From the NCBI GenBank assembly GCA_016188865.1, contig JACPGX010000002.1, forward strand, positions 66,398 to 130,397: a stretch of 64,000 bases of DNA, read 5' to 3'. The position numbers were made by a program, and so were the translations under genes. The notes below the pieces were generated by a model that did not search any database, was not told the DNA's origin, and saw only the letters and a list, made by a program, of their open reading frames with translations. Each line of letters begins with the position of its first letter. Within the stretch, counting starts at the first letter, position 1. Below, one piece after another: positions 1,252 through 49,435 of the stretch. Origin of the DNA: Candidatus Nealsonbacteria bacterium. GTDB taxonomy: Bacteria; Patescibacteriota; Minisyncoccia; Minisyncoccales; MHMH01.

Positions 1252-1355
1252 TTTCTGCCTCCCCTAGGGCTTAATGTCAAAGTACTCAAATTATGCTATC
1301 CCCCAGTTATGCAAAAGTCAACTATGCGCACGGTAAAAACAAAAAGAGAGGCTTA

Positions 1356-2237
1356 TTAATATCCTCTCTTTAATACTTGTTTTAATTTTTTATCAACTTC
1401 GTCAATGGTTTTAGCCACTGGAATGCCGGCTGATTCCAACGCCTCAATTTTTTCTTTGGCCGTGCCTTTTCCATCGGAAATAATAGCTCCGGCATGGCCC
1501 ATTCTTTTTTCCGGCGGAGCTGATAAGCCGCAGATATAGGCGACTACCGGATGGGTCAATCTAGTAGAAATCCATTTGGCTGTTTCTTCTTCAGCGCTGC
1601 CGCCGATTTCCCCCACCATCACCACTGCTTTAGTTTCTTTGTCTTTGTCAAAAAGCTCAAGGCAATCAATAAAATCCATGCCGACAATCGGATCGCCGCC
1701 TATGCCGACACAAGTTGACTGGCCGAATCCTTTTTTTGAGAGTCGCGCTGCGATTTCATAAGTTAAAGTGCCCGACCGCGAAATAATACCTATTTTCCCG
1801 GGACGAAAAATATTGGCAGGCATAATACCTATTTTAATTTTTTCTTTCGGAGAAATTATTCCGGGACAATTAGGGCCGATAAGCTTAGTCTTGCTTCCCC
1901 TAAGACAACTTTTTATTTTCATCATATCGTGAACGGGAATTCCCTCGGTAATGCAAACGACCAACTCAAGCTTAGCTTCAATGGCCTCTACAATTGCGCC
2001 GGCAGCGAACTTTGCCGGGACGAAAATAATTGAGGTATTGACTCTTTGCTCTTTTACGGCTTCTGCCACAGTATTATATACCGGGATTCCTTCAAAATCG
2101 GTATTTCCCTTGCCCGGAACAACGCCAGCTGAAATATTGGTACCGTAATCTCTGCAAAGCTTAGCGTGAAAGCTCCCTTGAGCGCCGGTAATACCCTGAA
2201 CGACAACTCGCGTTTCTTGATTTATTAAAATACTCAT
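1356..2237 (-). CDS. sucD: succinyl-CoA synthetase alpha subunit
   Basis: 293 aa. N-terminus VVVQGITGAQGSFH, plus SRSGTLTYE and MGHAGAII segments typical of the CoA-ligase alpha chain. Start overlaps the sucC stop by 4 nt. Confidence 0.95.
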   Translation of the reverse strand: MSILINQETRVVVQGITGAQGSFHAKLCRDYGTNISAGVVPGKGNTDFEGIPVYNTVAEAVKEQRVNTSIIFVPAKFAAGAIVEAIEAKLELVVCITEGIPVHDMMKIKSCLRGSKTKLIGPNCPGIISPKEKIKIGIMPANIFRPGKIGIISRSGTLTYEIAARLSKKGFGQSTCVGIGGDPIVGMDFIDCLELFDKDKETKAVVMVGEIGGSAEEETAKWISTRLTHPVVAYICGLSAPPEKRMGHAGAIISDGKGTAKEKIEALESAGIPVAKTIDEVDKKLKQVLKRGY

Positions 2238-3319
2238 CTGACTGCTCCTATCGCCAGTTTTGCGCCGTCTGTAAGGCTCGATGCTTTTTGGAACCTTATT
2301 CCTGATTTTTTCAATATCTGAAAACCCTCTTTGGCGTTGGTTCCCTCAAAGCGAACGATCAATGGTAAGTCAATTTTTTTATTCTGAAAAGCCATGGAAA
2401 CTCCTTGGGCCACCAAATCGCACCGGGAAATGCCGCCAAAGATATTAATAAAAACTGCTTTTACCTCTGGATCTTCGGCAATAACCTGGAAAGCTCTTCT
2501 AATTTTTTCCGGGTCAGCTCCTCCGCCCACATCTAGAAAATTGGCTGGCTCCCCTCCAAAAAGCTTGATAGTGTCCATGCTAGCCATAGCCAATCCTGCG
2601 CCATTAACCATACAGCCAATATTGCCGTCAAGCTTAATATAGTTAAGTTCGGAAACATCTGAAAATTTTTGATTCTCAAGCTGGCGGAATAAAGCGTTAT
2701 CATCAAAAACTATTTTGGCGTCCAAAGCATAAAGCTTATCATCTTCAGCCAAAACCAAAGGATTAATCTCTACCAATAAGCACTCTCTTTCTTTAAAAAC
2801 TCTCCAGAGCGCCGAAGCAACGGGCATCATGTCAGCTTTTACTCCATGAAAATCAATAAAGCCCTTAACAGGATCAATGTATTCTTTATATATCCTCTCC
2901 GGATGTTCTTTAGCGACTTCTTCTATAGAAGCGCCTCCGCTTGGGCAAAAAACAATCACCGGACATTCTTTCTGCCTGTCTACGGTTATCGCTAAATAAA
3001 ATTCTTTCTTAATGCCTAATTTTTCCTGAACGAGCACTTTATCGACCATCAGTCCTTCAGCCGAAGTTTGCGCGGTCGCCAAACGATGGCCGAGCATTTG
3101 ACTGGTAACCATTATTAATTCTTCAAGGCCGGCTGCTTCCTTCACGCCGCCTGCCTTACCTCTGCCGCCGGCCGTAATTTGAGCTTTAACCATCACTGGA
3201 AAACCAAGCTCTTGGGCTATAATCTCAGCTTCCCTAAGACTATCAGCCACTCTGCCCCGGGGAATCGGAATGCCGTATTCTTTAAATATTTCTTTTGCTT
3301 GATACTCATGAATTTTCAT
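2234..3319 (-). CDS. sucC: succinyl-CoA synthetase beta subunit (short, 361 aa)
   Basis: ATP-grasp N-terminus MKIHEYQAKEIFKEYGIPIP. Translationally coupled to sucD. SD GGAGAAGGAG upstream. Confidence 0.9.
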   Translation of the reverse strand: MKIHEYQAKEIFKEYGIPIPRGRVADSLREAEIIAQELGFPVMVKAQITAGGRGKAGGVKEAAGLEELIMVTSQMLGHRLATAQTSAEGLMVDKVLVQEKLGIKKEFYLAITVDRQKECPVIVFCPSGGASIEEVAKEHPERIYKEYIDPVKGFIDFHGVKADMMPVASALWRVFKERECLLVEINPLVLAEDDKLYALDAKIVFDDNALFRQLENQKFSDVSELNYIKLDGNIGCMVNGAGLAMASMDTIKLFGGEPANFLDVGGGADPEKIRRAFQVIAEDPEVKAVFINIFGGISRCDLVAQGVSMAFQNKKIDLPLIVRFEGTNAKEGFQILKKSGIRFQKASSLTDGAKLAIGAVR

Positions 3320-3457
3320 TTCCCCACTACTCCTTCTCCATATTCAATTATTAAGGTCTTTCTATATTAATCTAAAAATAACTTTTGTCAATGCTCTGTA
3401 AAAAAACGATCTCCGACGCGGGTGCCGGAGATCGTTCTTTCGCGCTCTGAAATATGG

Positions 3458-4258
3458 CTAGTCGGCCCAAAATACAAAAGTGAATGCCTTTTCATTATTT
3501 CCGAAATCGCGAACAAAAAGAGAGGGTCTGCCTTTTGAATCTTTTCTAATGGCCTTGCCCCACTCAACTGTGTCTGCGGTACCTGCGGCATCTATTGCAA
3601 TGTTATTCCCGCGTCCGCTAAAAACCGTTTGACCAATCGTTATAACGGTATCGAGATGGGCATAAATTGCCTCAAGTTGTTCGTAGTCATGCGCATTGGG
3701 ATGTTCATTTGAAAGCGGGCCGTCTGGATCGCTGGTATAATCCATGCAAGTGCCAAGATTGGAATTTGAAAAATTCTCATCCTGATGATCGAGACCGAAT
3801 GTATGGCCGATTTCCTGGCACATCACAAGTCGCCTCCAAGCGGGAGTGTTATAAGTGGCGGTGTTAAAATAACTATCATTTACCTTAACTACGCCCTTGG
3901 TAATATGATCGCCCTGCACCCCTATTGAAGCTAAGCCCAGCCACCCGTTAAATCCGTATTTGCTGCTGCAAACTTCTACGCGTCCGTTCGCTGCCTTGCA
4001 CGATTTAGGATTAGTGCCACCGCTGACAATCGCAGTATCCAGCACGGAAGAAGCGCTCCAATCAAACGAAGCCTCTCCGAGATAAGCGTCCCACTGGCTT
4101 GAAACATTGTCCCCGAGCTTAAGCTCAAAGGGGTTGGATTGGCGCTCCCAATGATAATTTCCCCAAGAATGATTCGCATATGCGGCTGCTCCGACAAAAG
4201 CGAAAACGGCGAGAGAAATGATGATTGCCTTCCTTGTCTGAAATTTTATAGAATTCAT
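3458..4258 (-). CDS. secreted metzincin-like protein with variant zinc motif QEIGHTFGLDH
   Basis: 266 aa with an N-terminal signal-like hydrophobic segment (IIISLAVFAFVGAAAYA). The motif at 3785-3817 fits HExxHxxGxxH except that the first His is Gln. No SD upstream. Confidence 0.55.
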   Translation of the reverse strand: MNSIKFQTRKAIIISLAVFAFVGAAAYANHSWGNYHWERQSNPFELKLGDNVSSQWDAYLGEASFDWSASSVLDTAIVSGGTNPKSCKAANGRVEVCSSKYGFNGWLGLASIGVQGDHITKGVVKVNDSYFNTATYNTPAWRRLVMCQEIGHTFGLDHQDENFSNSNLGTCMDYTSDPDGPLSNEHPNAHDYEQLEAIYAHLDTVITIGQTVFSGRGNNIAIDAAGTADTVEWGKAIRKDSKGRPSLFVRDFGNNEKAFTFVFWAD

Positions 4259-4474
4259 ATTGAGTTTAATTAATTTTGACGAATAAAATAAGTTTTCGAC
4301 CTTTGTTCGGCAACCTAATAGCGTTAATTATGTTTTATTATATCAAATTATAAAAAAAGAGCAAATTAAATATTAATCAATGCCCCTGCCCGTTGTTGCT
4401 AAAGTCGTTGACTATCAATGGAATTAGTGATAATAAATTAAGAGTTATTTTGCTCTTTGAAAAGGGGGTAAAAA

Positions 4475-5103
4475 TGAGGAAGGCTATTTTTTGGCATACG
4501 GCTTTAGCGGTTTTGCAGACATTGACCGGAATATTTTTGGCTAGTTTTTTGTTATTTCATTTGCTGGGAAATTCTGTCATTAACTTCGGCGAAAACGCAA
4601 TGAATTCTTACATGAGCCATCTTGATAAGACAACTTTTTTGATCAAAGCCGGCATCTGGCTTTTGGGCATTGCGCTTTTGACGCACGGCCTTAATGGCTT
4701 AAGAATAGTTTTGCGCTATTTCAGAAAAACCTCGGAAATTCCCGGCTTTCTAGATGATACAAAATACCGCAATTCTTTTTTGTGGTATGTCCATTTTTCC
4801 GCAGGTCTATTGATTGCAATTTTTGTGGCAGTCCACTTGGCTCTGGCTTATTTCGGAGAAAAAGAATCAGTAACCACGGTTGAACTGATAAAAAAGCGCC
4901 TTCAGAACGATTACTACTTTATTTTAATGAATTTGTTTTTGATTGCGGTGATTTTCCACGCCTGCTACGGCATAAGGAGCATTTTTGTGAAATACGGGTT
5001 TTTAGTCAAACACCAAAGAAAAATCAGCATTATCTTGCTAATTTTGGGAATTATTTTTACGCTCTTGGGAATGAATAATTTGATGCTTTATGGAGGAGGT
5101 TAA
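4475..5103 (+). CDS. sdhC: succinate dehydrogenase/fumarate reductase cytochrome b membrane subunit
   Basis: ATG at 4475 follows a GGGGG SD. Polytopic hydrophobic protein with several His residues, directly upstream of sdhA. The ORF-track TTG start at 4393 is judged an upstream extension. Confidence 0.7.
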
Positions 5104-5105
5104 AA

Positions 5106-6851
5106 ATGGACGCATATTTTTCCGATGCGCTGATAATTGGCGCGGGATTGGCTGGAGAAAGAGCGGCAATTGAGATTGCCTCTGAGGGTTTTTCTGTGAA
5201 TATAATTTCTTTGGTGCCGCCGAGGCAGTCGCATTCCAATGCTGCCCAGGGAGGCGTTCAAGCGTCTTTAAACAACACGAAAGAAACCGCAGATGACAAC
5301 TGGCGAATTCATTTTGACGATACGGTCAAGGGCTCCGACTGGGGCGCTGACCAGAGAGTTGTTGAAAAAATTTGCAAATTAGCCCCAGAACTCGTAAGGC
5401 AATTTGATTATTGGGGAGCTGCCTTTTCCAGAACTAAAGAGGGGAAAATCAACCAGCGAGCATTCGGCGGAGCATCAAAACCGAGATGCGCTTTTGCTTC
5501 TGACGAAACCGGCCACATTCTTCTTAATATTCTTGATTCGCAAGTCATGGCCTTAAAGATTCCGATTTTCATCAGGCGCCAGCTGCTTTCCCTGATATAT
5601 ACCAACGAAGAAGTAATCGGAGTCACCGCCTTAAATTTAGTTAAAGGAACCATTGAAGTATTTACGGCAAAAGTAATTATTTTAGCCACTGGCGGGGCTG
5701 GCAGGCTGTATGAGGAAACAACAAATTCTCGAATATCTTTCGGCGACGGCTGCGCAGTTGCTTTAGAAACAGGATTAGTCCCTGTAGGAAACCCTGAAGC
5801 CATCCAATTCCACCCGACTTGTTTAGTGCCGACATCTATTCTGGTAACAGAAGGATGCCGCGGCGATGGCGGGGTGCTTTTGGACAAAAACGGTAGAGAG
5901 TTTATGGGAGATTATTGCCCCACCATGAAAAATCCCAATCTTGCTTCCCGCGACGTAGTTTCTCGCTCAATGATGCGCCATATCAAAAAGAACTTTGGCG
6001 TTGAAAGCCCTTACGGACCGCATCTTTGGCTGGATATAAAGAGATTGGGCAAAGAACATATAAAAACAAAATTGTCTGGCGTTGATCTTCTTTGCCGAGA
6101 TTACGTTAATGTTAATCCCATTAAAGAGTATATTCCTGTCAGGCCGAGTCAACATTACACTATGTTCGGAATTAAAACAGGGGAATCGTGCGAAGTTTAT
6201 GGATTAGCAAGATTATTTGCCGTGGGCGAATGCGCTTGCTGGGACGTGCACGGTTTTAACAGACTTGGCGGCAATAGTCTTTTGGAAACAATCGCTGCAG
6301 GCTATACCGCCGGGCAAGAAGCTGGCAAGTACCTGTATATGGAAAACACCCAAAACTTTTCCGATTTAAAAATTGCTGAAGAATATCAAAAACAAACAAA
6401 GCGGCTTGAAGAATTAACGAAAAATCGCGGCAAGGAAAATGTCTTTGGGGTCTATCGCGAAATCCAAAAAACACTTACTGAAAAAGTGGGAATTTTCAGA
6501 AAAGAAAACGAGTTGAAAGAGGCAGTAGCAAAACTTGCTATTCTTTGCGGAAAAACCCAACGCATAAAATTAGGGTATAGAGAAACAGCAGCAAACTTGG
6601 AACTCCAGCTTGCCTTGCGCTTGCCGGGAATGGCCAAGCTTGCTCTTTGCACCGCCCAAGCCGCGCTTTTAAGAAAAGAGTCGCGAGGCAGTCATTACCG
6701 GGAAGATTATCCTGACCGCGATGATAAAAATTGGCTGAAAAGAACTTTAGCTTATTTTCCGGAAGAAAACGATCTGCCGAGAATAGAATATGAACCAGTG
6801 GAAATCACCTTGCTGCCGCCCGGCGACAGGGGCTACGGAGAAAAGAAATGA
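5106..6851 (+). CDS. sdhA: succinate dehydrogenase/fumarate reductase flavoprotein subunit
   Basis: 581 aa. FAD-binding N-terminus IIGAGLAGERAA, then QFHPT...TEGCRGDGG and a C-terminal ESRGSHYREDYP. Confidence 0.95.
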   Translation: MDAYFSDALIIGAGLAGERAAIEIASEGFSVNIISLVPPRQSHSNAAQGGVQASLNNTKETADDNWRIHFDDTVKGSDWGADQRVVEKICKLAPELVRQFDYWGAAFSRTKEGKINQRAFGGASKPRCAFASDETGHILLNILDSQVMALKIPIFIRRQLLSLIYTNEEVIGVTALNLVKGTIEVFTAKVIILATGGAGRLYEETTNSRISFGDGCAVALETGLVPVGNPEAIQFHPTCLVPTSILVTEGCRGDGGVLLDKNGREFMGDYCPTMKNPNLASRDVVSRSMMRHIKKNFGVESPYGPHLWLDIKRLGKEHIKTKLSGVDLLCRDYVNVNPIKEYIPVRPSQHYTMFGIKTGESCEVYGLARLFAVGECACWDVHGFNRLGGNSLLETIAAGYTAGQEAGKYLYMENTQNFSDLKIAEEYQKQTKRLEELTKNRGKENVFGVYREIQKTLTEKVGIFRKENELKEAVAKLAILCGKTQRIKLGYRETAANLELQLALRLPGMAKLALCTAQAALLRKESRGSHYREDYPDRDDKNWLKRTLAYFPEENDLPRIEYEPVEITLLPPGDRGYGEKK

Positions 6852-7555
6852 GAGAATTAAAAGTTAAAATCGCTCGGGGAAACAAAAATTTCAGTGAATT
6901 TTCAGTTCAAGAAAAACCGAGAATGAGCGTCCTTTTGCTGCTCGATGAAATATTAGAAACTCAAGATTCCAGCATTTATTACGAATCGGTTTGCCGTTCG
7001 TCTATTTGCGGCTCTTGCGCCGTCAAAATCAACGGCCAGCCGAAGTTAGCCTGCAAAACGCAAACATCGTCATTGCCAGAAAACATAACTTTAGAGCCCT
7101 TGGACTTTTTCCCGCTGATTAAAGATTTGGCAACCGATAAATCAAGATTCTTTCTGGAATTAAATAGAAAGCTGGAGACATGGATACATCCATCAAAACC
7201 TTTTTCGGGAAAAGACGAAATAATGCCGGAGGAAGTTTCCGCCAAACTTTACGAAAGAGAAAGATGCATTGAATGCGGGATTTGCGTATCTGCCTGCCCG
7301 GCTGCCAGCTTCACGAATTTTATGTCAGCCTCGGGCACGCAAAAAGCCTTGAGATTTCTCGATGACCCGCGCAATAGCAAAGAAGCCCAAGAAAAACTGA
7401 TTGCAGTTCTTGCTTCAGATGAAGGATTGTGGGGCTGCCACGGCGTCGGCGCTTGCGAAAACTTCTGCCCGAAAGAAATACCCCTGACTCGCCAGTTAGC
7501 CGAAAGCCGCAGGGAAATTATAAAACTGATTCTCAGAGATTGGTTTAAAAAATAA
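6848..7555 (+). CDS. sdhB: succinate dehydrogenase/fumarate reductase iron-sulfur subunit
   Basis: 235 aa. 2Fe-2S Cys cluster CRSSICGSCAVKING, ferredoxin-type CIECGICVSACP, and a C-terminal CENFCP. 4-nt overlap with sdhA. Confidence 0.9.
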   Translation: MRELKVKIARGNKNFSEFSVQEKPRMSVLLLLDEILETQDSSIYYESVCRSSICGSCAVKINGQPKLACKTQTSSLPENITLEPLDFFPLIKDLATDKSRFFLELNRKLETWIHPSKPFSGKDEIMPEEVSAKLYERERCIECGICVSACPAASFTNFMSASGTQKALRFLDDPRNSKEAQEKLIAVLASDEGLWGCHGVGACENFCPKEIPLTRQLAESRREIIKLILRDWFKK

Positions 7556-7557
7556 GT

Positions 7558-7620
7558 GTAGCACCACCTGGTGGTGCTACAAAAAAGCCTCGCTTTCTTA
7601 AGGCGGGGCTTTGTATTTTT
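7558..7620. terminator. convergent terminator pair between sdhB and the minus-strand fumarase operon
   Basis: Perfect palindrome GTAGCACCACC-T-GGTGGTGCTAC (7558-7580) flanked by A/T runs. It is followed by AGCCTCGC...GCGGGGCT plus a T-run (about 7586-7620). Confidence 0.6.
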
Positions 7621-8404
7621 AACTCAAGCATTTTCTGCAGATTCCACATCTAAAATGCGCGGACTGTCCGAAAAAATCAGGCGGGCAAACCATTTTCTTT
7701 TGTTCTGCGGTTAAGCTTTTCCACCAAGGAGCTTGGGTGGGAATCGGCAAGTCTCTGCCCCGCAATCCATAAGCGGGGAAGATAACCGACCCCTTGGGTA
7801 AATCTTCGGGCACCTCTCCCTCTACGGTAAGATAACAAATCCTGAAGTCATATTTTCGGTGAACCCTGCGCGCTTTTTTATAGTTATCTTTATCGGCCGA
7901 AAGGTTAATAACTAAATTTTTAGCTCCAACTAAGGGAGTAAGATATTGGAAAGACCTGGTATAAATCACGAATTTTACATCCGGGGCAGCGTCGCAAACC
8001 TTGCGGATGAAACGAGCATATTTTATGGAAAAGATATCGCCTGAAACATGCCAACGAAATCCGCCGGGACAATGCTCGGAAATCCATGTGGAAAATGCGC
8101 TTACAGTTTTTTTAAAATAATGCGGGTTATCCAGAATCCGACGGATGGTCCTGCTGTTCTCCCGATACTTTCGGTGAACCTCGGCTTCTTGCTTTTCCAA
8201 ACCGTGGACATAACAGGTGTTTTTGCAGGTGGGGGTGGCGAAGGGGCAATCTTGAACCTGAACCAATGAAAAAGCGTTAGCAATGGGTTTATCGAATGTT
8301 CCGTTCGTAAAAGTTATTTTACCGTTGCCGTCAAACCAAAAAGTAAATTCTGTTCCGTCCGGCATCGCAAGGGGCAGTTTTTCCAAAGCAAATTTAGTTG
8401 GCAA
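7619..8404 (-). CDS. Cys-rich hypothetical protein, last gene of the malic enzyme/fumarase operon
   Basis: ORF 7619-8431. The TTG at 8404 lies 5 nt after GGAGG, so I prefer it as the start. Cys clusters: CPFATPTCKNTC near the N-terminus and CPPDFFGQSAHFRCGICRKC at the C-terminus. I recognise no family with confidence. Confidence 0.5.
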   Translation of the reverse strand: MPTKFALEKLPLAMPDGTEFTFWFDGNGKITFTNGTFDKPIANAFSLVQVQDCPFATPTCKNTCYVHGLEKQEAEVHRKYRENSRTIRRILDNPHYFKKTVSAFSTWISEHCPGGFRWHVSGDIFSIKYARFIRKVCDAAPDVKFVIYTRSFQYLTPLVGAKNLVINLSADKDNYKKARRVHRKYDFRICYLTVEGEVPEDLPKGSVIFPAYGLRGRDLPIPTQAPWWKSLTAEQKKMVCPPDFFGQSAHFRCGICRKCLS

Positions 8405-8960
8405 TTTTTCCTCCTTGCTTATATTTTTCAATTCCTTCTCTATAAAGATCGTTTCCTAAAACATCGTTAATGACAATTAAGGGAAAATTTTCAACTATTA
8501 ACTCGTAAATTGCTTCGGCCCCTAAATCTTCGTAGGCAATCACTTTGGCCGACTTAATGCTTTTTGAAATTAAAGCTCCGACTCCGCCCGTCGCACCGAA
8601 ATAAACGCACTGGTATTTTTTCATAGCTTCAATAACAGACTGCGATCTCATGCCCTTGCCAATCATTCCCTTAAGGCCGATTTCCATCAAGCGCGGCGCA
8701 TACGCATCCATTCTGCCTGAAGTGGTCGGTCCAGCGGAACCAATAACTTGACCCGGCCTTGCTGGCGAAGGTCCCATGTAATAAATAACCTGCCCTTTTA
8801 CGTCGAAGGGTAGGGTCCTTCCCCTATCCAGTGCTTCAATCATTCTTTTGTGGGCCGCGTCTCGGGCAGAGTAAATTATGCCTGACAGTAAAACTTCGTC
8901 GCCGATTTTCAGTTTTGCCAAATCTTCATCTTTTAGGGGAGTTGTTAAATCAACTTTCAT
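8394..8960 (-). CDS. class I fumarate hydratase (Fe-S hydro-lyase) beta subunit
   Basis: 188 aa. The GPTTSGRMD and GMIGKG segments are typical of FumA/TtdB C-terminal-type subunits. Coupled to the alpha subunit. Confidence 0.9.
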   Translation of the reverse strand: MKVDLTTPLKDEDLAKLKIGDEVLLSGIIYSARDAAHKRMIEALDRGRTLPFDVKGQVIYYMGPSPARPGQVIGSAGPTTSGRMDAYAPRLMEIGLKGMIGKGMRSQSVIEAMKKYQCVYFGATGGVGALISKSIKSAKVIAYEDLGAEAIYELIVENFPLIVINDVLGNDLYREGIEKYKQGGKIAN

Positions 8961-9799
8961 AGAATTGCCTCCTTATGCCTTGCCGCATGGCAATTAATAT
9001 TGACTGCCACAGGCAAGCTGGCAATATGGCATGGCTCCATTCCAATAAAAACAGCTAAGGCAGTTCTGCTGCCGCCCAACCCCGCAGGGCCCATGCCGAG
9101 TTTATTTATAGCGGAATATAATTCATACTCAAGAAGATTAAGTTCTCCATCCGTATTAGGCGTGTTCGTACTCCTTAACAGGGCCTTTTTAGCCAAGAAA
9201 GCTGCTCTTTCAAAAGTACCGCCGCCAATGCCTACTCCCACCACGATTGGCGGACAAGAATTAAAACCGGCTTGCTCTACAGTTCCAATAACAAATTTTT
9301 TAATGCCGTCTTTGCCGACCGAAGGGCTAAGCATTGCCAGTCGGCTCATATTTTCCGCGCCTCCGCCCTTGGGACAAACAATAATTTTCAGTTTATCTCC
9401 GGGCACCATGTAAAGATGGATTACTGCCGGAGTATTATCTCCGGTATTTTTTCTGGTCAAGGGATGGCAAAGTGATTTTCTTAAATAGCCATCTTTATAA
9501 CCCTGCCTGACGCCTTCATTGACGGCATCAAAAAGATTGCCGCTGATTATCCTTACCTCATTGCCCATTTCCAGAAAAACAACGGCTGTTCCGCAGTCTT
9601 GACAAATCGGTATCTTCTCTTCCGCGGCTATTTTATTATTTTCCAGTATTTGGCTAAGCGCTGCTTGCCCCAAAGGAGAAACCTCTCGGCTTGCAGCATA
9701 ATTTAAAGAAGCTAAGACATCCGAAGGCAAAAAAAGATTCGCCTCCTGGCAAAGATTGGCCACAGTTTTTGCTACCTTCGCGCAGCTAATTCTTCTCAT
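8957..9799 (-). CDS. class I fumarate hydratase (Fe-S hydro-lyase) alpha subunit
   Basis: 280 aa. Contains the cluster-binding region ICQDCGTAVVF. SD AGGAG upstream. The start abuts the malic enzyme stop. Confidence 0.9.
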   Translation of the reverse strand: MRRISCAKVAKTVANLCQEANLFLPSDVLASLNYAASREVSPLGQAALSQILENNKIAAEEKIPICQDCGTAVVFLEMGNEVRIISGNLFDAVNEGVRQGYKDGYLRKSLCHPLTRKNTGDNTPAVIHLYMVPGDKLKIIVCPKGGGAENMSRLAMLSPSVGKDGIKKFVIGTVEQAGFNSCPPIVVGVGIGGGTFERAAFLAKKALLRSTNTPNTDGELNLLEYELYSAINKLGMGPAGLGGSRTALAVFIGMEPCHIASLPVAVNINCHAARHKEAIL

Positions 9800-11103
9800 T
9801 ATTTTCTCCTGACCGCTCTTTGGGATTTATTAATCATAGCTTTAGCATTTCGCTCCAAATATTCAGCACTGTGAGCGATTCTGGCCACGCCCTGTTCTTG
9901 CGCTTTCATCCCCACGGCCACAGCTTCTTCAATAAATGCCTGTTTTTCTTTCATCGTCGGAAGAATATTATTTTCATCAATGCCGCGCTTCTGGGCAAAA
10001 TTTGCCAGAGATTCTGCCGCGGCAATGCACATCTCGTTGGTTATGGTTTTGGCCCTGACATCCAAAGCTCCGCGAAAAAGGGCCGGGAAAACTAAAGAAT
10101 TATTTACCTGATTAGGAAAATCCGAGCGGCCGGTAGCAACAATTCTTGCTCCGGATATTTTTGCTTCTTCCGGCCAAATTTCAGGATTGGGATTGGCGCA
10201 GGCAAAAACAATTGCGTCTTTATTCATCTCACTTATCCATTGCGGTAAAATAACTCCGGGGCCTGACTTCGACAAAGCAATGCAAACATCGGCTCCGCAA
10301 AGCGCCTCCCGGACGCTTCCTTTCCGCTGCTCTGGATTTGTGGTTTGGCAAAGCCTCCACTTGTCGGGATATTCTGTTTGTTTTTCTCCAATATCATTTC
10401 TTTCAAGATGCAAAATGCCCTTATCGTCAACTGCAATGCAATTTTGAGGTTTTATGCCTACAGAAAAAAACAAACGCGAAACAGCGATATTGGCAGCTCC
10501 CGTTCCAACGAAAACAATGGCGGCAGTTTCCAATCTCTTGCCAACTATTTGAAGGGCGTTAATTAGGCCGGCCAAAACAACTGTGGCTGTCCCCTGCTGG
10601 TCGTCATGCCAAACCGGAATCTCCATTTCCTTTCTTAATGTGTCTAAGATATAAAAACATTTGGGATTTTCAATATCCTCCAGATTTATGCCGCCAAACG
10701 ATGGCTGGAGCCATTTCACTGCTTGGATAATTTCTTCGGGATTTTTTGTGTCTAGGCATATGGGAACAGCATCAACGCCTCCTAGGTATTTAAACAAAAG
10801 CGCTTTGCCCTCCATCACGGGCAAACCAGCTTCAGGCCCGATATCTCCCAAGCCAAGAACTCTGGTGCCGTCTGAAACAATGGCAACGGTATTGCATTTA
10901 TTGGTCAAATCATAAACTCTGTCTTTTTCGGCCTTGATTACCCGACAGGGTTCAGCAACTCCCGGAGTATAGTAAACAGAAAAATCGTCTAATCCGGCGA
11001 TGGGCACCTTGGATGATGTTTGGATTTTCCCGCCGTAAAGCAAATGCCGCTTCATTGCCTCTTCGCCAAGCAATCTTGTTCTTTCCTGATTTTTATCTTC
11101 CAT
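9799..11103 (-). CDS. NAD(P)-dependent malic enzyme (short prokaryotic type)
   Basis: 434 aa. Malic-enzyme N-terminal and NAD-binding regions (YTPGVAEPC, VFVGTGAANIA). SD GGAGG. Promoter-like TTGACT-17-TATTAT upstream. Confidence 0.9.
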   Translation of the reverse strand: MEDKNQERTRLLGEEAMKRHLLYGGKIQTSSKVPIAGLDDFSVYYTPGVAEPCRVIKAEKDRVYDLTNKCNTVAIVSDGTRVLGLGDIGPEAGLPVMEGKALLFKYLGGVDAVPICLDTKNPEEIIQAVKWLQPSFGGINLEDIENPKCFYILDTLRKEMEIPVWHDDQQGTATVVLAGLINALQIVGKRLETAAIVFVGTGAANIAVSRLFFSVGIKPQNCIAVDDKGILHLERNDIGEKQTEYPDKWRLCQTTNPEQRKGSVREALCGADVCIALSKSGPGVILPQWISEMNKDAIVFACANPNPEIWPEEAKISGARIVATGRSDFPNQVNNSLVFPALFRGALDVRAKTITNEMCIAAAESLANFAQKRGIDENNILPTMKEKQAFIEEAVAVGMKAQEQGVARIAHSAEYLERNAKAMINKSQRAVRRK

Positions 11104-11193
11104 TTTTCCTCCTCACATTTTCAAAGTACTCTAACCTCAGCCATAATATAAAAAGCGACCATTGAAGTCAATGGCCGCTTTTGCTTAAAATTT

Positions 11194-12444
11194 TTAACAA
11201 ACTGTGCAGCGTCTGGCATCAACCACCCGTTTTACCGCTAAATCGAAAACTGCGTCGCGCAAATAAAGTCCTTTTTCTTGACTATACTGCCAGCCATACT
11301 CAAATATTTCTTTCATATGCTTTTGCAATTTTGCCAAAACCACTTTTTCCGGCCATTGCTCCCATTGCCTGTTTTGCACCATTTCATACCAAGAAACGTT
11401 TACTCCTCCGCCGCTGGCCATTGTGTCTGGAAGAACCACAATTTTCTTTCCCCTGAAAATCTCGTCAGCTTCTACGGTTGCGCAGATATTGCCGAGTTCG
11501 GCAAGAACCTGCGCGTTCATTGATTTTGCTCTTTGGGCCGTAATAGTCGTGCCAACAGCGGCTGAAATCCAAACATCGCATGGCATAGCAAATAATTCGT
11601 CGTGCGTAATAACTTTTCCCGTCTCAAGTTCTGCCAATGGTTTTTTGCCGCTTTCTTTTAGCTCAATGGCTCTTTCGATATCAATCCCTTCAAATCCATT
11701 TTCTTGGAAAATTGCCCCATGCGAATCAGAAAGGCCGATAATCTTTGCTCCATTTTTATAAAGAATCTTCACGGCTGGTATATTAACATTTCCAAATCCT
11801 TCGGCTATAATCCGACAATCTTTAACGTTTATTCCCAATTTCTTAAGGACTTCAAGAATCACCACAGCTCCGCCGGTCCCCGTTGCATCTTTACGGCCAT
11901 AAGAGCCGTGCAATTCAGTCGGTTTTCCGGTTACTGCCCCCCAGATGTTGGGAACGCCGCTTAAAAGAGAATATCTTTTCATCATCCAGCCCATCATTTC
12001 AGCGGTAACCCCGGCATCGGGCCCCAACACCGCCATCTCGGGCCCGATCAAATGAAAGGTTTCGTCAATAAATTTCTCGCAGATTTCTTTTAATTCTTTT
12101 CTCGTTAAAGTTTTGGGATCGCAATCAACTCCGCCCTTCATTCCCCCAAGGGGCAAGCCGTGAAAAGAATTTTTCCATGTCATGCCCTTGCCCAAACCCC
12201 TAAATTCATCAAGATTCACTTCCGGAAAAAATCTTGTTCCGCCCTTATACAAACCGAGGGTGCAATCATGCTGAACCAAATAGCCGTGGTATAGTTTCCC
12301 GTTCTCTAAAATCAGAGTAAAACTTAACTCCCGGCTGATCGCGCGCAGATAATCACGCATTGTTGAGTCGAGATGAAGTCTGGCAGCTGCTTGTTCAAAA
12401 TGATGCTCAATAATCTGAACGGGATTCATAATCTCCTTACTCAT
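11194..12444 (-). CDS. gdhA: glutamate dehydrogenase
   Basis: 416 aa. Active-site region LPLGGMKGGVDCDP and a Rossmann segment EGFGNVN. SD GGAGG. Confidence 0.95.
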   Translation of the reverse strand: MSKEIMNPVQIIEHHFEQAAARLHLDSTMRDYLRAISRELSFTLILENGKLYHGYLVQHDCTLGLYKGGTRFFPEVNLDEFRGLGKGMTWKNSFHGLPLGGMKGGVDCDPKTLTRKELKEICEKFIDETFHLIGPEMAVLGPDAGVTAEMMGWMMKRYSLLSGVPNIWGAVTGKPTELHGSYGRKDATGTGGAVVILEVLKKLGINVKDCRIIAEGFGNVNIPAVKILYKNGAKIIGLSDSHGAIFQENGFEGIDIERAIELKESGKKPLAELETGKVITHDELFAMPCDVWISAAVGTTITAQRAKSMNAQVLAELGNICATVEADEIFRGKKIVVLPDTMASGGGVNVSWYEMVQNRQWEQWPEKVVLAKLQKHMKEIFEYGWQYSQEKGLYLRDAVFDLAVKRVVDARRCTVC

Positions 12445-12552
12445 TTTTATAAGCCTCCTTTTTCAACGTACTAAATCATCATATAGCTTTTGCAAATGAA
12501 GCGTCAAGCAAATAAAAAAACCGGAAAACCCGCGAAAGACCTCGCGCAAGAC

Positions 12553-12577
12553 TCCGCGGAAGTTGGACTTCCGCGGA
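12553..12577. repeat. left palindromic hairpin of the RAYT unit
   Basis: TCCGCGGAAGT TGG ACTTCCGCGGA: 11-bp stem, 3-nt loop. Confidence 0.85.
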
Positions 12578-12601
12578 TCTGGTATGCTACGATATATTTA
12601 T

Positions 12602-13306: not shown

Positions 13307-13307
13307 G

Positions 13308-37102: not shown

Positions 37103-38332
37103 CTAAATTATATTATTTCTTTCCTTGAGCATGTCAAGTACTATTTGTTTATCAGACCAAGGAATCTTTTTCCCGCGCTTAATGCACATCCATGGCTCCG
37201 ACCCCTTGCCCGTAATAATCACCGTATCTCCCGATCCCGCCAAACTTAATGCTTTTTTTATCGCTTCCCGCCTATCTAGTATTTTTTGAGCATTCGGCGC
37301 GCCACTGGCAATATCATCTAAAATATTTTCTGGCGGCTCATCGTAAGGATCTTCGTTCGTCAAAATAATCTCATGGCAATATTTAGCGGCAATTTTTCCA
37401 ATCTCCGGCCTCTTCCATTTATCCCTCCCCCCGCCGGCAGAACCCAAAACGCAAATTTTTCTGCCCCCCATTGCTTGATAAACTTTCTCCAGGGCTTCTG
37501 GGGTATGGGCATAGTCAACAATCGCGGAGAACGGTTCTCCGAGAATTTTTTCCATTCGGCCGGGGATGCTTTCGATTTTTAACAAAGCATCTTTGCATAT
37601 TTCCAAATCAATCCCTTGCGACAAGCCCACAGCAATTGCTGCCGCAGCGTTATATAAATTAAACTCCCCCGGTAATTTTAAATTAAGCGGCAGGATATTT
37701 TCCGCCGAAACTATCGAGGCCCGGCCTCCATAGTGTGCTATAGAAGCCGGGCCTCCCGACATTGTAAAACCGATTTTCTTTTTTGCCGGAAAACTCCAAA
37801 AGTAATCGGAATTTTTATCGTCGCGATTAATGATGTGAATGTTTTTGCACGCTTCAAAAAGTTTTCCTTTGGCTTCTTTATATTTTTCAAAACTGCCGTG
37901 CCTCTCGATATGTTCCGGAGAAAGATTGGTGAAAACAACGGTGTCAAAATCAATAAATCTGTGGCGGTGCTGTTTTATGCCCTCTGACGTTACCTCAACC
38001 ACAGCATACAGACATCGGGAGTCTGTAGCTTGCTTTAAAAATTTTTGAATCTGAAAACGGCCGGGCATGGTCATCTTTAAGGCATTGGGCCATTCTTTAT
38101 CTCCTATTTTAAAGCTGATGGAAGACAAAGAAGCAGTTTTGAATCCCGCTTCTTCTAAAATTTTGGCAATCATTAAAACAACGGTTGATTTTCCGTTGGT
38201 ACCAGTGACGCCGATAACTTTTAATTTACGCGATGGAAAACCATAAAAAACTGCCCCTAGAAATGCTAACGACAAATGATAAAAATCGAGTAAAAACGAG
38301 GGGGTAATTTTTTTAACAGCGTCTTTAATCAC
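37103..38332 (-). CDS. murE: Mur ligase family protein, MurE-like (short N-terminus)
   Basis: 409 aa. P-loop GVTGTNGKST and the DYAHTPEALEKV motif. GTG start only 7 nt after a TAAGAT -10-like box, and no SD. Confidence 0.7.
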   Translation of the reverse strand: MIKDAVKKITPSFLLDFYHLSLAFLGAVFYGFPSRKLKVIGVTGTNGKSTVVLMIAKILEEAGFKTASLSSISFKIGDKEWPNALKMTMPGRFQIQKFLKQATDSRCLYAVVEVTSEGIKQHRHRFIDFDTVVFTNLSPEHIERHGSFEKYKEAKGKLFEACKNIHIINRDDKNSDYFWSFPAKKKIGFTMSGGPASIAHYGGRASIVSAENILPLNLKLPGEFNLYNAAAAIAVGLSQGIDLEICKDALLKIESIPGRMEKILGEPFSAIVDYAHTPEALEKVYQAMGGRKICVLGSAGGGRDKWKRPEIGKIAAKYCHEIILTNEDPYDEPPENILDDIASGAPNAQKILDRREAIKKALSLAGSGDTVIITGKGSEPWMCIKRGKKIPWSDKQIVLDMLKERNNII

Positions 38333-39932: not shown

Positions 39933-40046
39933 CCTCTTCTCCCTATTGTTATTTTCAAGGAACTTTTCCTTACTGAATCTATGTTATAGAAAAAAAGATG
40001 CCTGTCAATACCGATAGTCAACTGAAAAACCAATCGAAACAAAAAA

Positions 40047-43488: not shown

Positions 43489-43562
43489 AACTCACTCTCC
43501 TTTTTATTTTATTTTCAAGGTTCACGATACTTAAAACTATCACAAACAAAAAGGGTGTCAAA

Positions 43563-43934
43563 TCAGACGCCCTTTGTTTTTTCTAAAAACTCTTTTTGAA
43601 TTTTGTAAGCTGGCGCCTCTAAGGGTAAATTAGCGCTGTATTTGAAGCCAGCCCTAGCCCAGTCAAAAATATATTTCAAAAGAAAACGGCCAACCCCGAG
43701 TTTTTCATATTGCTCTACGTGCTTTAGCTCGTGGACAAACAGCCACAATTCTTGCCGGGATTTATTTGGAAAGTAAATGTTTCTGCCGATAGTAACGGCG
43801 CCTGCATTAAAAAACTTGGCGAAAAAACAAGCGACTATTCCGCCTCGGACCAACTTCACCTTATTCAAATCTAAATCAGGATACCATGGCTTTAAAATTT
43901 CTTGCGTTTTCTCATCCAATCTTTCGATTTTCAA
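43563..43934 (-). CDS. small HExxH protein, DUF4157-like
   Basis: 123 aa. TTG start 8 nt after GGAGG. GRNIYF...FVHELKHVEQY resembles the DUF4157 metallopeptidase-like domain. Confidence 0.5.
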   Translation of the reverse strand: MKIERLDEKTQEILKPWYPDLDLNKVKLVRGGIVACFFAKFFNAGAVTIGRNIYFPNKSRQELWLFVHELKHVEQYEKLGVGRFLLKYIFDWARAGFKYSANLPLEAPAYKIQKEFLEKTKGV

Positions 43935-43996
43935 AGTACCTCACCTCCTTCAAGATTAACAAAAAATCCTTTTCCGTCAAATGACAAAAAAGGATT

Positions 43997-47454: not shown

Positions 47455-47478
47455 TTCCCCACCTCCTTCTGATAGGCC

Positions 47479-48366
47479 TTAGCCCTTTTTACGGGCAACA
47501 ATCCTTTTCTTGAAAAAATCGTGAACCGCAATGGCTACGTCTTTTTCTGCAGCCGAATCAAGAAAAATAGAATAAAGCCTATGGCGCTTGAATAAATCTT
47601 TGAGTTTTGCCATCCACGCCTCTTCTTCGATTGTTATTTCTTTAGCTTTTTTGGCGGTAAGCCAAAGGGTTGCTTTTTTACCGGTTTCAACATCTTTATA
47701 GGCAATCCTTGTGCCGGAAAAAACTGCGAACTCTTTGGGGTCTTTGATTACTACTGGGATAAAATCAAACTTTTGGCTGGCGATTTTAATTTCTTTTTCA
47801 AATTCTCTTTTTTCAAAAAAATCTGAAATGAAAAATATTACACTTTTGGGTTTCGTCGCCCTGCTAATGAAACGCATGGCTGCCGGGATATTGGTCATTG
47901 AATTTTTTGGTTGATATTCCATATGCCATCTTAATATCCGGCGAAAATGGATTCTCCCCAAACGGGGCGGAAAATATCCTTCAATACCACTGGAAAAACC
48001 AACAAATCCAAAAGAATTATTGCCGGTCAGAACCAAAGACCCGATAAGGATTTCAAGAAAGGTGTCAACAACGGCTAGTTTCTCCTCCGACCAACTCATT
48101 GAATTAGACAAATCAAGAGCTACGATGATCGTCAGATTTTTTTGAACTACTCTTTCAATCACAAACAGTTCTCTTGCCTTGGCATACTGCGGCCAATGAA
48201 TTCTTTTTGCATTATCGCCTGATTGATAAGGCCGGAGATCAACAAAATCCTCCCCCTCTCCCTTATAAATGCTCGGAAATTCTCCGGGGAATAAATTGAG
48301 CACCCTCAAGAGGGCCGTGAACTTTAGCCTGCGCCTTTTCAAATACCTTGACTGGATCTCTCTCAT
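47479..48366 (-). CDS. DUF58 family protein (MoxR partner)
   Basis: 295 aa with DLRPYQSGDNAKRIHW, a DUF58-type motif. Its start overlaps the moxR stop. Confidence 0.75.
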   Translation of the reverse strand: MREIQSRYLKRRRLKFTALLRVLNLFPGEFPSIYKGEGEDFVDLRPYQSGDNAKRIHWPQYAKARELFVIERVVQKNLTIIVALDLSNSMSWSEEKLAVVDTFLEILIGSLVLTGNNSFGFVGFSSGIEGYFPPRLGRIHFRRILRWHMEYQPKNSMTNIPAAMRFISRATKPKSVIFFISDFFEKREFEKEIKIASQKFDFIPVVIKDPKEFAVFSGTRIAYKDVETGKKATLWLTAKKAKEITIEEEAWMAKLKDLFKRHRLYSIFLDSAAEKDVAIAVHDFFKKRIVARKKG

Positions 48367-49346
48367 TAGCGGCGCCCCTTGCTTACTGCGGGAATTATAT
48401 CTTTCTCAATCAAGTCATCAATAAAATCTAATTTTTTCTTATCCGGCTGCACGACCAAGTCATCAATCATCAGCCTATGGCGCAAAATTGGCTTGGCCAC
48501 TTCATCAATGTCGTCCGGCAAAACTGTATTATCGCCTCGCAAAAAAGCATGGACTCTTGAACCCGCCTCAATGGCCATCATGGCTCTCGGTGAGCCGCCG
48601 AGCGAAATGCCGACCTGAGAACGGGTGGCTCTTACCAATTCAACGATGTAATCTTTCTGCCGGTCATCAATTCTTACTTCTTTCCTGATTAACGATCTGA
48701 CCACCAGGATTTCATCCAACTTGATAATATTTTTCATTGCCGGCCTTTCCTCATTGCCCCAGTTAACGAGAATCCTTTCATCTTCTTTAGAGCCGTATCC
48801 CATCCTGATCATCATCATAAATCGGTCAAGTTGGGCTTCAGGCAAGGAAAATGTCCCCTCATGTTCAATGGGATTTTGGGTGGCCATAACCAAAAATGGC
48901 TCAGAAAGCTGATAAGTAGTGTTGCCCATAGTTACCGCCGCCTCTTGCATGGCTTCCAACAAAGCCGATTGCGTCCTGGGGGTGGTACGATTTATTTCGT
49001 CAACCAAAAGAATATTGGTAAATACCGGTCCCTTTCTGGGCTCCAATGTTTCGCGCGCACTGCTCCAGATATCAGTACCGGTAATGTCGGAAGGCAAAAG
49101 ATCGGGGGTGCATTGAATTCTGTTAAATTTCCCTCCGATAATCACGGCAATAGTTTTTGCCAACTCGGTTTTGCCAATACCGGGCACGCCCTCCAAAAGA
49201 ATGTGCGCTCTCAACCGCGGCCCGCTCGATAACAGGCAAATGACAATCTGCCTTAATTCTTTTTCATATCCTACAATATTTTTTCTAACCTCAAGCTCAA
49301 AATCTTCTGTAAAAAGCTTCCTCGCTTTAATCAATTCTTCTTTCAT
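48366..49346 (-). CDS. moxR: MoxR-family AAA+ ATPase
   Basis: 326 aa. Walker A GVPGIGKT, Walker B LLVDEINR, and MATQNPIE. GGAGG SD. Confidence 0.9.
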   Translation of the reverse strand: MKEELIKARKLFTEDFELEVRKNIVGYEKELRQIVICLLSSGPRLRAHILLEGVPGIGKTELAKTIAVIIGGKFNRIQCTPDLLPSDITGTDIWSSARETLEPRKGPVFTNILLVDEINRTTPRTQSALLEAMQEAAVTMGNTTYQLSEPFLVMATQNPIEHEGTFSLPEAQLDRFMMMIRMGYGSKEDERILVNWGNEERPAMKNIIKLDEILVVRSLIRKEVRIDDRQKDYIVELVRATRSQVGISLGGSPRAMMAIEAGSRVHAFLRGDNTVLPDDIDEVAKPILRHRLMIDDLVVQPDKKKLDFIDDLIEKDIIPAVSKGRR

Positions 49347-49435
49347 TGCCTTGTATCCTCCATTATTTTATTTTCAATGAACCTAAATCCGACCCGCGTG
49401 GGGTCTTTCTTTTTTACAATAGCAATATAACGGCG

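Follow-up and report, generated by a model that had tools for sequence, protein, structure and literature searches.

The question raised by this locus is what a short sequence recurring in the operon leaders of a 64,000-nt stretch of Candidatus Nealsonbacteria DNA (the window) is, and what might read it. The motif, nnG[T/C][A/T]C[N]TTGA[A/C]AA, stands on the transcribed strand before about 15 operons in window positions 1-49.4 kb, between a predicted near-consensus TTGACA-17-TATAAT promoter and the Shine-Dalgarno sequence (SD) of the downstream operon. It is present in roughly 15 of the 23 transcription units with a leader in these 49 kb (about two thirds of the SD-led operons), and its targets are mostly metabolic and envelope genes. 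Judged by sequence, the motif is probably boxA, the short RNA signal of rRNA operons through which the antitermination factors NusB/S10 are loaded onto RNA polymerase, and it would recruit Nus factors to the polymerase here as well.

The core CAAAGTAC occurs four times, as previously counted, with all copies on the plus strand (1278, 11122, 17941, 43932), against an expectation of 0.98; one of 100 shuffles gave four. The 12-mer TTTTCAAAGTAC is present in exactly three copies (11118, 17937, 43928), with near-copies at 12460, 19816, 21672, 1274, and 4452. When k-mers were counted without bias in 30 upstream regions, GTACTTTG was the top-enriched 8-mer and GTACTTT the top 7-mer; TTGACA (-35) and AGGAGG (SD) were enriched in the same count. 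Site lists were partly picked by eye before the matrices were made, and the window was scanned with a scoring matrix built from sites outside the window only. This non-window matrix gave 12 window matches of at least 13 bits (1.35 +/- 1.16 in shuffles) and 10 of at least 15 bits (0.55 in shuffles), and the motif was 5-9 times as dense as in unrelated DNA of similar G+C. It also recovered every site of the first-pass annotation, at 11.8-17.4 bits, all in the same direction as the downstream gene; the recurrent leader motif proposed there is thereby confirmed.

Orientation and placement are equally one-sided. Window matches to the non-window matrix were sense-upstream in 14 cases and antisense intergenic in 2; in relatives, 15-16 intergenic matches lay sense-upstream of a gene and 2-3 antisense, with a density of ~1.7 per kb in sense intergenic DNA versus ~0.2 per kb-strand in coding sequence. 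The block at 49.4-64 kb, where the motif had not been seen in leader position, contained no match of at least 13 bits and no sense-upstream match of at least 9 bits; its genes look leaderless. The distance to neither promoter nor SD is fixed: in the window the motif follows the predicted -10 by 3-15 nt (~20 at moxR) and lies 0-10 nt from the SD, and in relatives the start codon may be up to ~130 nt away.

Among the metabolic leaders are the following (scores from the non-window matrix; minus strand unless indicated). The korAB element GAGTACTTTGACAT (1274-1287, 12.0 bits) lies 20 nt before the start codon and starts 5 nt past the -10 of TTGACT-17-TAGCAT; the sdhCAB element is TTGCTCTTTGAAAA (4450-4463, plus strand, 16.4 bits); the malic enzyme-fumarase element is GAGTACTTTGAAAA (11118-11131, 16.8 bits; promoter TTGACT-17-TATTAT at 11171-11143); the gdhA element TAGTACGTTGAAAA (12460-12473, 16.8 bits; promoter TTGACG-18-TATGAT at 12507-12478) abuts the SD AGGAGG; and the element of the proDH-like/methylmalonyl-CoA mutase operon is TAGTACTTTGAAAA (17937-17950, 16.7 bits; promoter TTGACT-18-TATACT at 17984-17955). 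The coordinates first reported stand apart from two minor slips: the proDH-like 18-mer occupies 17937-17954, not 17940-17957, and the malic enzyme 15-mer requires 11118-11132. A degenerate second copy of the gdhA -10 and motif, TGATTTAGTACGTTGAG (13338-13354, minus strand), was read directly from the sequence beyond an inserted Y1-transposase gene (ORF 12563-13306, Y1_Tnp Pfam match); because no gene follows, it is probably a remnant.

Further boxA-like elements, all on the minus strand, precede an ABC permease gene (AGGTACTTTAAAAA, 19816-19829, 14.8 bits; promoter TTGACA-17-TATATT at 19861-19833); a small lipoprotein gene, abutting its SD (AAGTTCTTTGACAA, 21672-21685, 15.4 bits; promoter TTGACA-16-TAATAT); an OmpA-domain gene (TTGCACCTTGAAAT, 31141-31154, 13.2 bits, 21 nt before the start codon); an NMT1-OmpA gene, a weak and borderline addition to the first list (TAGCTCTTCAAAAA, 35339-35352, 10.8 bits); an aldehyde dehydrogenase gene (GAGCAACTTGAAAA, 37090-37103, 11.8 bits), the weakest of the first-listed sites and without the C at an otherwise invariant position; a 266-aa lipoprotein gene (AAGTTCCTTGAAAA, 39952-39965, 17.4 bits); an FtsH-like AAA/M41 gene (GTGAACCTTGAAAA, 43512-43525, 15.6 bits); and the MoxR-DUF58-VWA operon (AGGTTCATTGAAAA, 49371-49384, 15.7 bits). 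The element AGGTACTTTGAAAA (43928-43941, 16.1 bits) lies downstream of the SD and overlaps the TTG start of the DUF4157/eCIS-core gene. The AAA+ promoter region, previously regarded as motif-free, cannot be called so because the first list missed a strong copy, CAGTTCATTGAAAA (minus strand, 25850-25863; 16.8 bits), which is found 27 nt into the annotated AAA+ ORF; as this ORF has a strong SD and a TTG start at 25890, the copy falls in early coding sequence, and its function is uncertain. The copies at 43928 and 25850 thus stand at or after a start codon, where ribosomes would compete with a binding factor. Weaker sites run on into A-rich stretches (TTGAAAATAAAATAA), and an upstream module, GATTTAG, is common to several sites and falls outside what a boxA reading accounts for. 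Similarity between sites is limited to the 12-18 nt motif; whole promoters are not alike.

The identity of the motif was sought in rRNA operons. When both strands of E. coli rrnB (6.6 kb) were searched with a matrix made from 13 window sites only, the best match was the spacer boxA TTGCTCTTTAAAAA, and the leader boxA CTGCTCTTTAACAA came third; the sdhCAB element and the rrnB spacer boxA TGCTCTTTAAAAA are identical at 12 of 13 positions. Applied to plasmid-borne rRNA operons of three Firmicutes, the window-trained matrix placed its best two matches in each at the 16S-leader and 16S-23S-spacer elements: TTGTTCTTTGAAAACT (17.2 bits) and TTGAACTTTGAAAACT (15.6 bits) in Priestia; TTGTACATTGAAAACT (16.0 bits) and ATGAACATTGAAAACT (13.6 bits) in Staphylococcus aureus; TAGCACTTTGAAAACT (18.4 bits) and AAGAACTTTGAAAATT (17.0 bits) in Clostridioides difficile. 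In sequence, the motif matches the rRNA boxA of several phyla. Within the phylum, the full motif follows a TTGACT-17-TAATAT promoter in Patescibacteria contig L132/L242, and the L242 copy GGGAACATTGACAACTGAATAG (12.4 bits), 282 nt before 23S, is the sole match above 7 bits in 876 nt upstream, where chance would give ~0.03 matches this strong; this same-phylum rRNA comparison consists of one 23S leader, from a Patescibacterium other than that of the window. The gamma-proteobacterial boxA consensus is GYTCTTTAANA, with lineage-specific variants in other groups; against this consensus, a related korA leader (L278, GCTCTTTAATA) scores 11/11, and the window sdhC (GCTCTTTGAAA) and lipoprotein (GTTCTTTGACA) elements 10/11 each. 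At rRNA operons boxA is the binding site of the NusB-NusE(S10) heterodimer and nucleates a polymerase modified by Nus factors, and it loses its function when C4 or T6 is mutated; in agreement with this, C4, T6, and T7 are nearly invariant among the window sites (window-site matrix).

The sdhC-leader element is conserved across seven related lineages, with SdhA 64-76% identical, in which the flanks change, the -10 lies ~7-24 nt away, and the SD follows at 0 to ~50 nt; 128 nt separate the element from the start codon in L132. A G+C-rich hairpin stands between the sdhC boxA and the SD in three relatives (L274, L275, L291). Folding of the window leaders gave no significant structure (z scores -1.9 to +1.1), and the mean pairing probability was 0.42 in the motif versus 0.48 elsewhere in the leader. 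No Rfam family matched in the window; none of nusB, rpsJ, nusG, nusA, and rho lies in the window or the flanks examined, and suhB is likewise absent from the window.

Under the boxA reading, transcription would begin at the near-consensus sigma70-type promoter, upstream of the motif, so that boxA would appear in the first 10-40 nt of the leader RNA. NusB/S10, together with NusG and NusA, would then tether the boxA RNA to the polymerase. The modified complex might resist termination and pausing through the operon, as at rRNA operons; alternatively, as at E. coli suhB, it might make the nearby SD less accessible to ribosomes, so that the effect on expression could take either direction.

The first-pass annotation did not recognize boxA and offered three options. 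The conserved 5'-UTR element agrees with the sense orientation, the position downstream of predicted promoters, and the floating distances; the upstream promoters, already canonical, and the variable spacing make an unusual promoter architecture unlikely; an operator fits less well. A 5'-UTR element could also be read by something other than Nus factors, whether S1 (at an enhancer or standby site), a lineage-specific RNA-binding protein, or a small RNA, with the likeness to boxA reflecting a shared A/U-rich single-strand recognition. At the unprecedented density seen here a different factor could indeed read the motif: very many targets suit a general translation signal better than a specialized antiterminator, the motif usually lies 0-11 nt from a strong SD in the window, the A-rich runs after the weaker sites recall enhancer-like leaders, and E. 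coli S1 is reported, in a review, to bind boxA RNA specifically. We nevertheless regard this reading as rather unlikely, since in relatives the element keeps close to the promoter when SD and start codon are ~50 and ~130 nt off, two copies come after an SD or start codon, and the conserved G, C, TT, and A.A are the boxA positions of four unrelated rRNA operons, which goes beyond A/U richness.

Action at the DNA level was also weighed, either as the operator of a global repressor of central-metabolism and envelope operons just past the -10 or as a sigma-dependent pause site, TACTTT resembling a -10 hexamer. A location from +1 to ~+25 past strong consensus promoters is typical of repressors, and the strongest copies precede related genes (korAB, sdhCAB, malic enzyme-fumarase, gdhA, and the methylmalonyl-CoA mutase operon); unrelated targets (MoxR-VWA, FtsH-like, OmpA-domain genes, DUF4157) are nevertheless included. 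The motif is not palindromic and lacks a convincing direct repeat, it keeps one orientation in ~30 instances at variable -10 spacing, and the same sequence is a known RNA signal in Firmicutes and E. coli rRNA leaders and spacers, all of which makes a DNA element improbable. That the motif has no function, being a by-product of A-rich leaders or part of a promoter cassette spread by duplication or mobile elements, is hardly credible: TTGAAAA by itself shows only about 2-fold intergenic enrichment, and one -10 and motif copy is duplicated beside the Y1-transposase insertion, but the excess of matches of at least 13 bits over shuffles (12 versus 1.35), the density relative to unrelated DNA of similar G+C, the end of inter-site similarity at the motif borders, and its retention in orthologous leaders at only 64-76% SdhA identity all speak against it.

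Two named identities were tried and rejected. Bacteroidota-type promoters (-33 TTTG/-7 TAnnTTTG) carry TAnnTTTG ~7 nt before the start site, have no canonical -35/-10, and usually lack an SD; the present motif reads TA-C-TTTG, with one base in place of two, and stands between complete TTGACA-17-TATAAT promoters and strong SDs. Palindromic global-regulator operators (CodY-, CcpA-, Rex-, or FNR-like) have dyad symmetry and may take either orientation; the aligned sites have no dyad and a single orientation.

Among known systems, the boxA of rRNA operons is the closest in sequence: G[T/C][A/T]C.TTGA[A/C]AA of the window compares with TGCTCTTTAACAA and TGCTCTTTAAAAA of E. coli and with G(T/A)(T/A)C(T/A)TTGAAAACT of Firmicutes, and both are linear, unstructured, on the transcribed strand, and soon after the promoter; unlike rRNA boxA, the window motif precedes protein-coding operons, and no boxB or boxC partners were identified. 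The nut site of phage lambda combines boxA with a boxB hairpin and acts with N protein. It shares with these leaders an early boxA, and the hairpin that follows the sdhC boxA in the three relatives resembles boxA-boxB, whereas the leaders of the window itself lack a hairpin; we know of no N-like protein in this lineage. The T7 gene 10 'epsilon' UUAACUUUA exemplifies A/U-rich translational enhancers, which act by SD proximity and likewise place a short ACUUUAA-like sequence just before a strong SD, but the window motif stays with the promoter when the SD moves and matches rRNA boxA over 12-14 positions.

Upstream of CRISPR arrays, boxA is found in many phyla (Stringer et al. 2020, PMC7665894); this non-rRNA use was detected by motif enrichment and validated against the rRNA boxA of the same taxa, the logic applied here, although CRISPR-array transcripts are long, non-coding, and in need of Rho protection, whereas those of the window are translated operons with short leaders. 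In mRNAs, boxA is known from the suhB 5' UTR of E. coli and Salmonella and predicted upstream of rpsJ, prsA, and ParE-like toxin genes, with 0-7 copies per genome in gamma-proteobacteria, mostly translation-related or autoregulatory (Baniulyte et al. 2017, PMC5725501). The suhB boxA lies 6 nt from the SD and functions when shifted up to 100 nt away (PMC5725501); like it, the window elements follow a predicted transcription start and precede, by a few nt, the SD of an mRNA. The outcome at suhB is repression and Rho termination, and the mainly metabolic and envelope targets of the window contrast with the few known per genome. Since boxA in mRNA leaders is already known, what is new is the density, with 12 strong sites in 49 kb; boxA before about two thirds of SD-led operons in a candidate-phyla-radiation bacterium would be far above any known organism.

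About 15 of the 23 leadered transcription units in 49 kb of the window carry a boxA-like element between the predicted promoter and the Shine-Dalgarno sequence (SD). The fourfold occurrence of its core reported in the first-pass annotation was reproduced (CAAAGTAC, all copies on the plus strand, versus 0.98 expected), and the longer motif described there is present as three exact copies of the 12-mer TTTTCAAAGTAC, while the remaining sites named there have copies with one or two mismatches; coordinates were correct overall, apart from two small slips. The sigma70-like promoters proposed upstream are matched by a predicted, near-consensus TTGACA-(16-18)-TATAAT-like sequence before each site. 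GTACTTT(G) ranks at the top of an unbiased k-mer count (30 upstream regions) along with TTGACA and AGGAGG, and the motif is therefore the third recurrent upstream signal after the -35 and the SD. The -10 and the motif are separated by 3-5 nt at korA, gdhA, the proDH-like gene, ABC, and ALDH, and by 8-15 nt at the FtsH-like gene, malic enzyme, lipoproteins, sdhC, and OmpA; spacing from motif to SD is 0-10 nt in the window, the motif of the DUF4157 gene lying downstream of the SD. Copies at 43928 and 25850 are located at or within coding sequence. A GATTTAG module upstream of the motif is common to several copies; the boxA reading gives no explanation for it. Secondary structure in the window leaders is neither significant nor shared, and the motif is not preferentially paired, consistent with a linear boxA. 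No family was matched in an Rfam scan of the window, and no tRNA was found in a tRNA scan of it.

Motif scores (in bits) were obtained with a matrix built from 13 window sites and with an external matrix containing only sites from relatives, E. coli, and the Patescibacteria contig L242. All sites listed from the sequence alone were recovered by the external matrix at 11.8-17.4 bits, and matches of at least 13 bits numbered 12 in the window versus 1.35 +/- 1.16 in shuffles; site lists were partly chosen by eye ahead of matrix building, a bias in these numbers that is lessened, not removed, by reciprocal matrices and foreign rRNA operons. Motif density per 100 kb is 24 in 1-49.4 kb, 17 in relatives, and 2.7-5.4 in unrelated control DNA; in 49.4-64 kb, where no leader motif had been seen at first pass, it is 0. 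AAATAGAAGAACTTTTACAAA, near the 5' ends of two paralogous genes with no assigned function (380 aa and 399 aa; 21940-21953 and 26158-26171, plus strand), scores 10.3 bits as boxA-like, probably merely due to the paralogy of the two genes.

The region 1-49.4 kb encodes TCA-type and amino-acid catabolic enzymes (korAB; sucCD; sdhCAB; malic enzyme-fumarase; gdhA; a proDH-like/methylmalonyl-CoA mutase operon), and also an ABC transporter, an FtsH-like protein, and proteins with OmpA domains; a MoxR-DUF58-VWA operon and two transposase genes lie in the same part. Genes in 49.4-64 kb are of the housekeeping type, for DNA repair and translation. All 10 first genes examined in the latter block lack the boxA-like element. 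In five of the 10, a TAnnnT box ends 6-8 nt before the ATG, and four of these five have no SD; given the position of the box and the missing SD, these genes probably give leaderless mRNAs. Two gene-start styles, leaderless-type and SD-led, are therefore mixed on the contig. Genes with the TAnnnT -10-like box in 49400-64000 are ruvA, a PaaX_M-like gene, uvrB, a 5'-3' exonuclease gene, and ruvB (SD and TTGACA usually missing); the same style occurs at MurLigase (window 38332) and at PaaX_M on the comparison contig L270 (13560-13603). G+C is lower in the 49400-64000 block (0.37-0.42 vs 0.40-0.47). A 19-nt sequence, CACTTCTTACACGATCGTT, occurs twice without mismatch on the minus strand (50053-50071 and 50645-50663), once ahead of ruvA and once ahead of the PaaX_M/Cas2-like gene, at a distance of about 40-60 nt; this second recurring upstream motif is not related to boxA.

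Syntenic contigs were reached through SdhA homologues (64-76% identity). The sdhC leader element is kept in all seven lineages: TTGCTCTTTGAAAA in the window and L292; ATGCTCCTTGAAAA in L278; CAGTACTTTTAAAA in L281; CGGTTCGTTGAAAA in L274; ACGTTCGTTGAAAT in L275; ACGTTCGTTGAAAA in L291. The flanks of these elements differ, and their spacing varies: about 7-24 nt separate them from the -10, and 0 to about 50 nt from the SD. Further element-bearing leaders in relatives are those of korA, sucC, malic, proDH, a glutamate-synthase-like gene, and a PHP gene. With the window-trained matrix, 15-16 intergenic matches in relatives are sense-upstream versus 2-3 antisense, a density of roughly 1.7 per kb of sense-upstream intergenic DNA versus 0.2 per kb-strand of coding DNA. 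Outside these relatives, the Patescibacteria contig L132/L242 has TTGACT-17-TAATAT followed by GATTTAGTACGTTGAAAA, with the start codon 128 nt further on. By these comparisons taken together, the element is a discrete, oriented leader signal with a fixed place relative to neither the -10 nor the SD.

The TCA-type cluster itself (window 1-18000: sdhCAB/frd, sucCD, korAB, fumarase, malic enzyme, gdhA, methylmalonyl-CoA mutase) is unusual in a MAG labelled CPR (Nealsonbacteria). It is syntenic in L274, L275, L278, L281, L291, and L292, with neighbour genes typical of small-genome housekeeping (in L274, GCA_040961635.1: ArgRS, SmpB-tmRNA, IF3-L20, PaaX_M). Proteins that NCBI lists under this MAG label, from a 196,235-bp contig, match the window's gdhA and sdhA products at 100% identity. 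Window DNA was also found in several Logan assemblies of SRR121134xx runs. In L274 (13746-13817) and L275 (20119-20227), tandem heptamers set against one another, in the series (TTTTAGG)n ... (CTAACAG)n and TTTTAGC / GCTATAA, make up the leaders of L20 and a ferredoxin gene and could form long hairpins.

Identity as boxA is indicated by rRNA operons. The E. coli rRNA boxA TGCTCTTTAACAATTTA is resembled by GATGCTCTTTAATAATTC (L278 korA) and GAGATCTTTAACAATTTGG (L278 sucC). When both strands of E. coli K-12 rrnB were scanned with the matrix derived from the 13 window sites alone, the spacer boxA (TTGCTCTTTAAAAA, located between tRNA-Glu and 23S) ranked first, and the leader boxA (CTGCTCTTTAACAA, 145 nt ahead of 16S) ranked third. 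The same matrix was applied to plasmid-borne rRNA operons of Priestia megaterium, Staphylococcus aureus, and Clostridioides difficile; the two best matches in each score 13.6-18.4 bits (TTGTTCTTTGAAAACT, TTGAACTTTGAAAACT, TTGTACATTGAAAACT, ATGAACATTGAAAACT, TAGCACTTTGAAAACT, AAGAACTTTGAAAATT) and lie about 110-180 nt before 23S and roughly 300-500 nt before 16S, the latter distance being estimated from the offset to the 23S start. Though unlike the E. coli form, an A at position 3 of the motif (GTAC) thus falls inside the natural range of rRNA boxA sequences. Candidates in actinobacterial, cyanobacterial, and Deinococcus spacers are weaker and more diverged, as expected for boxA in these groups (PMC7665894). 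The 876 nt upstream of the 23S gene in L242 hold one match above 7 bits, GGGAACATTGACAACTGAATAG, 282 nt before 23S and nearly identical to the S. aureus leader element. No 16S gene precedes this 23S rRNA gene (L242 1-1000); upstream are, in order, a consensus promoter about 600 nt off, a second boxA-like sequence TCTCTTTAACC, a terminator-like hairpin, and the strong boxA-like site, and a divergent protein gene with the full motif comes next. The exact 18-mer GATTTAGTACKTTGAAAA gave 22 matches in 185,579 species genomes, about chance level, one informative Patescibacteria contig among them; its 119 matches in metagenomes are mostly one gut-metagenome coding-region coincidence, also present in a Bacteroides genome (L146).

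Between the mutase operon and gdhA sits a Y1 (IS200-like) transposase gene (12563-13306, plus strand) with CCGCGGAAG...CTTCCGCGG hairpins on either side (12554-12576 and 13310-13332). Past this gene, the gdhA -10 and motif recur as a near-duplicate of 23 nt (13338-13360; region 12445-13373), and in L278 gdhA directly follows the proDH-like gene without a promoter of its own; together these suggest that the gdhA promoter was made or displaced by the Y1 insertion or by a rearrangement. On L270 (13480-14285), past korB and to the left of the first window position, a PaaX_M-like gene has the same terminator hairpin, AAAAAAGGTGACGA.ATCGTCACCTTTTTATAT, on both sides and is also flanked by inverted-repeat sequences (AACGTACAATTCA...CCATGGTT / AACCATGGTT...TGAATTGTACGTT); the arrangement resembles a gene cassette that was inserted.

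Several other identities for the motif were rejected. A Bacteroidota -7 box (TAnnTTTG) would be in the wrong register, and canonical promoters are present. A sigma32-type -35 (CTTGAAA) or a second sigma70 promoter via TTGAAA/TACTTT has no partner hexamer at proper spacing, and the SD or start codon is too close downstream. SP6/T7-like single-subunit polymerase promoters (ATTTAGG...) have only 6-8 nt in common with the motif, and the polymerase gene is absent from the window. A dyad-symmetric operator was dismissed because symmetry is absent; anti-SD or fourU-type hairpins (CUUU/CCUU with the SD) have stems of only 3-4 bp, and their folds are not significant. The CCGCGGAAG hairpins are confined to the surroundings of the single Y1-transposase gene, against REP/RAYT-type repeats. 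Reading of the element by an S1-type or other RNA-binding protein is less likely than recognition as boxA, as are action at the DNA level, as an operator or pause site, and a repeat that has no function.

BoxA and the Nus complex are textbook components of rRNA and phage transcription, with only a handful of known mRNA targets. By analogy, loading of the Nus complex onto RNA polymerase is the most likely role of the leaders described here, and would take place once the first 10-40 nt have been made. The outcome would be either processive antitermination with faster elongation over multi-gene operons, or a suhB-like translation brake; variable spacing, single orientation, and position before long operons (the five-gene mutase operon, the six-gene MoxR operon, sdhCAB) are compatible with both. 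We consider it possible, short of probable, that Nus loading at boxA has spread from rRNA to most SD-led operons, including TCA-type, transport, envelope, and MoxR/VWA operons, so that two modes of expression would coexist in the genome. Housekeeping genes with leaderless mRNAs would then stand beside boxA-led operons transcribed by an rRNA-like, NusB/S10-modified polymerase and, because S10 is a ribosomal protein, expression of metabolic operons could be coupled directly to ribosome assembly status. BoxA at most leadered operons would mean either that mRNA synthesis can by default involve processive antitermination or translational gating by Nus factors, or that boxA-like RNA has a second, unrecognised reader. 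To our knowledge, almost nothing is known of the transcription signals of this lineage; the element would give a concrete, testable way into how genes are expressed in a candidate-phyla-radiation lineage that is uncultivated, and a simple sequence marker of leadered versus leaderless transcription units in these genomes.

The literature search turned up no genome in which most mRNA leaders are described as carrying boxA. A G+C-rich hairpin lies between the sdhC boxA and the SD in L274 (9235-9320), L275 (9293-9350), and L291 (9305-9366), e.g., GCCCGCCTTCGCTTGCGAGCAAGGCGCGGGC; this boxA-then-hairpin order is like that of a phage nut site, whereas the window sdhC leader has no hairpin. In many phyla, boxA is found ahead of CRISPR arrays (PMC7665894). 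In the suhB 5' UTR, a boxA that lies 6 nt from the SD represses translation, which in turn makes Rho termination possible; its function survives a shift of up to 100 nt (PMC5725501). In gamma-proteobacteria, a perfect-match search gave 0-7 boxA-preceded genes per genome, and few targets per species were expected by its authors (PMC5725501), compared with about 15 of 23 leadered units within 49 kb here.
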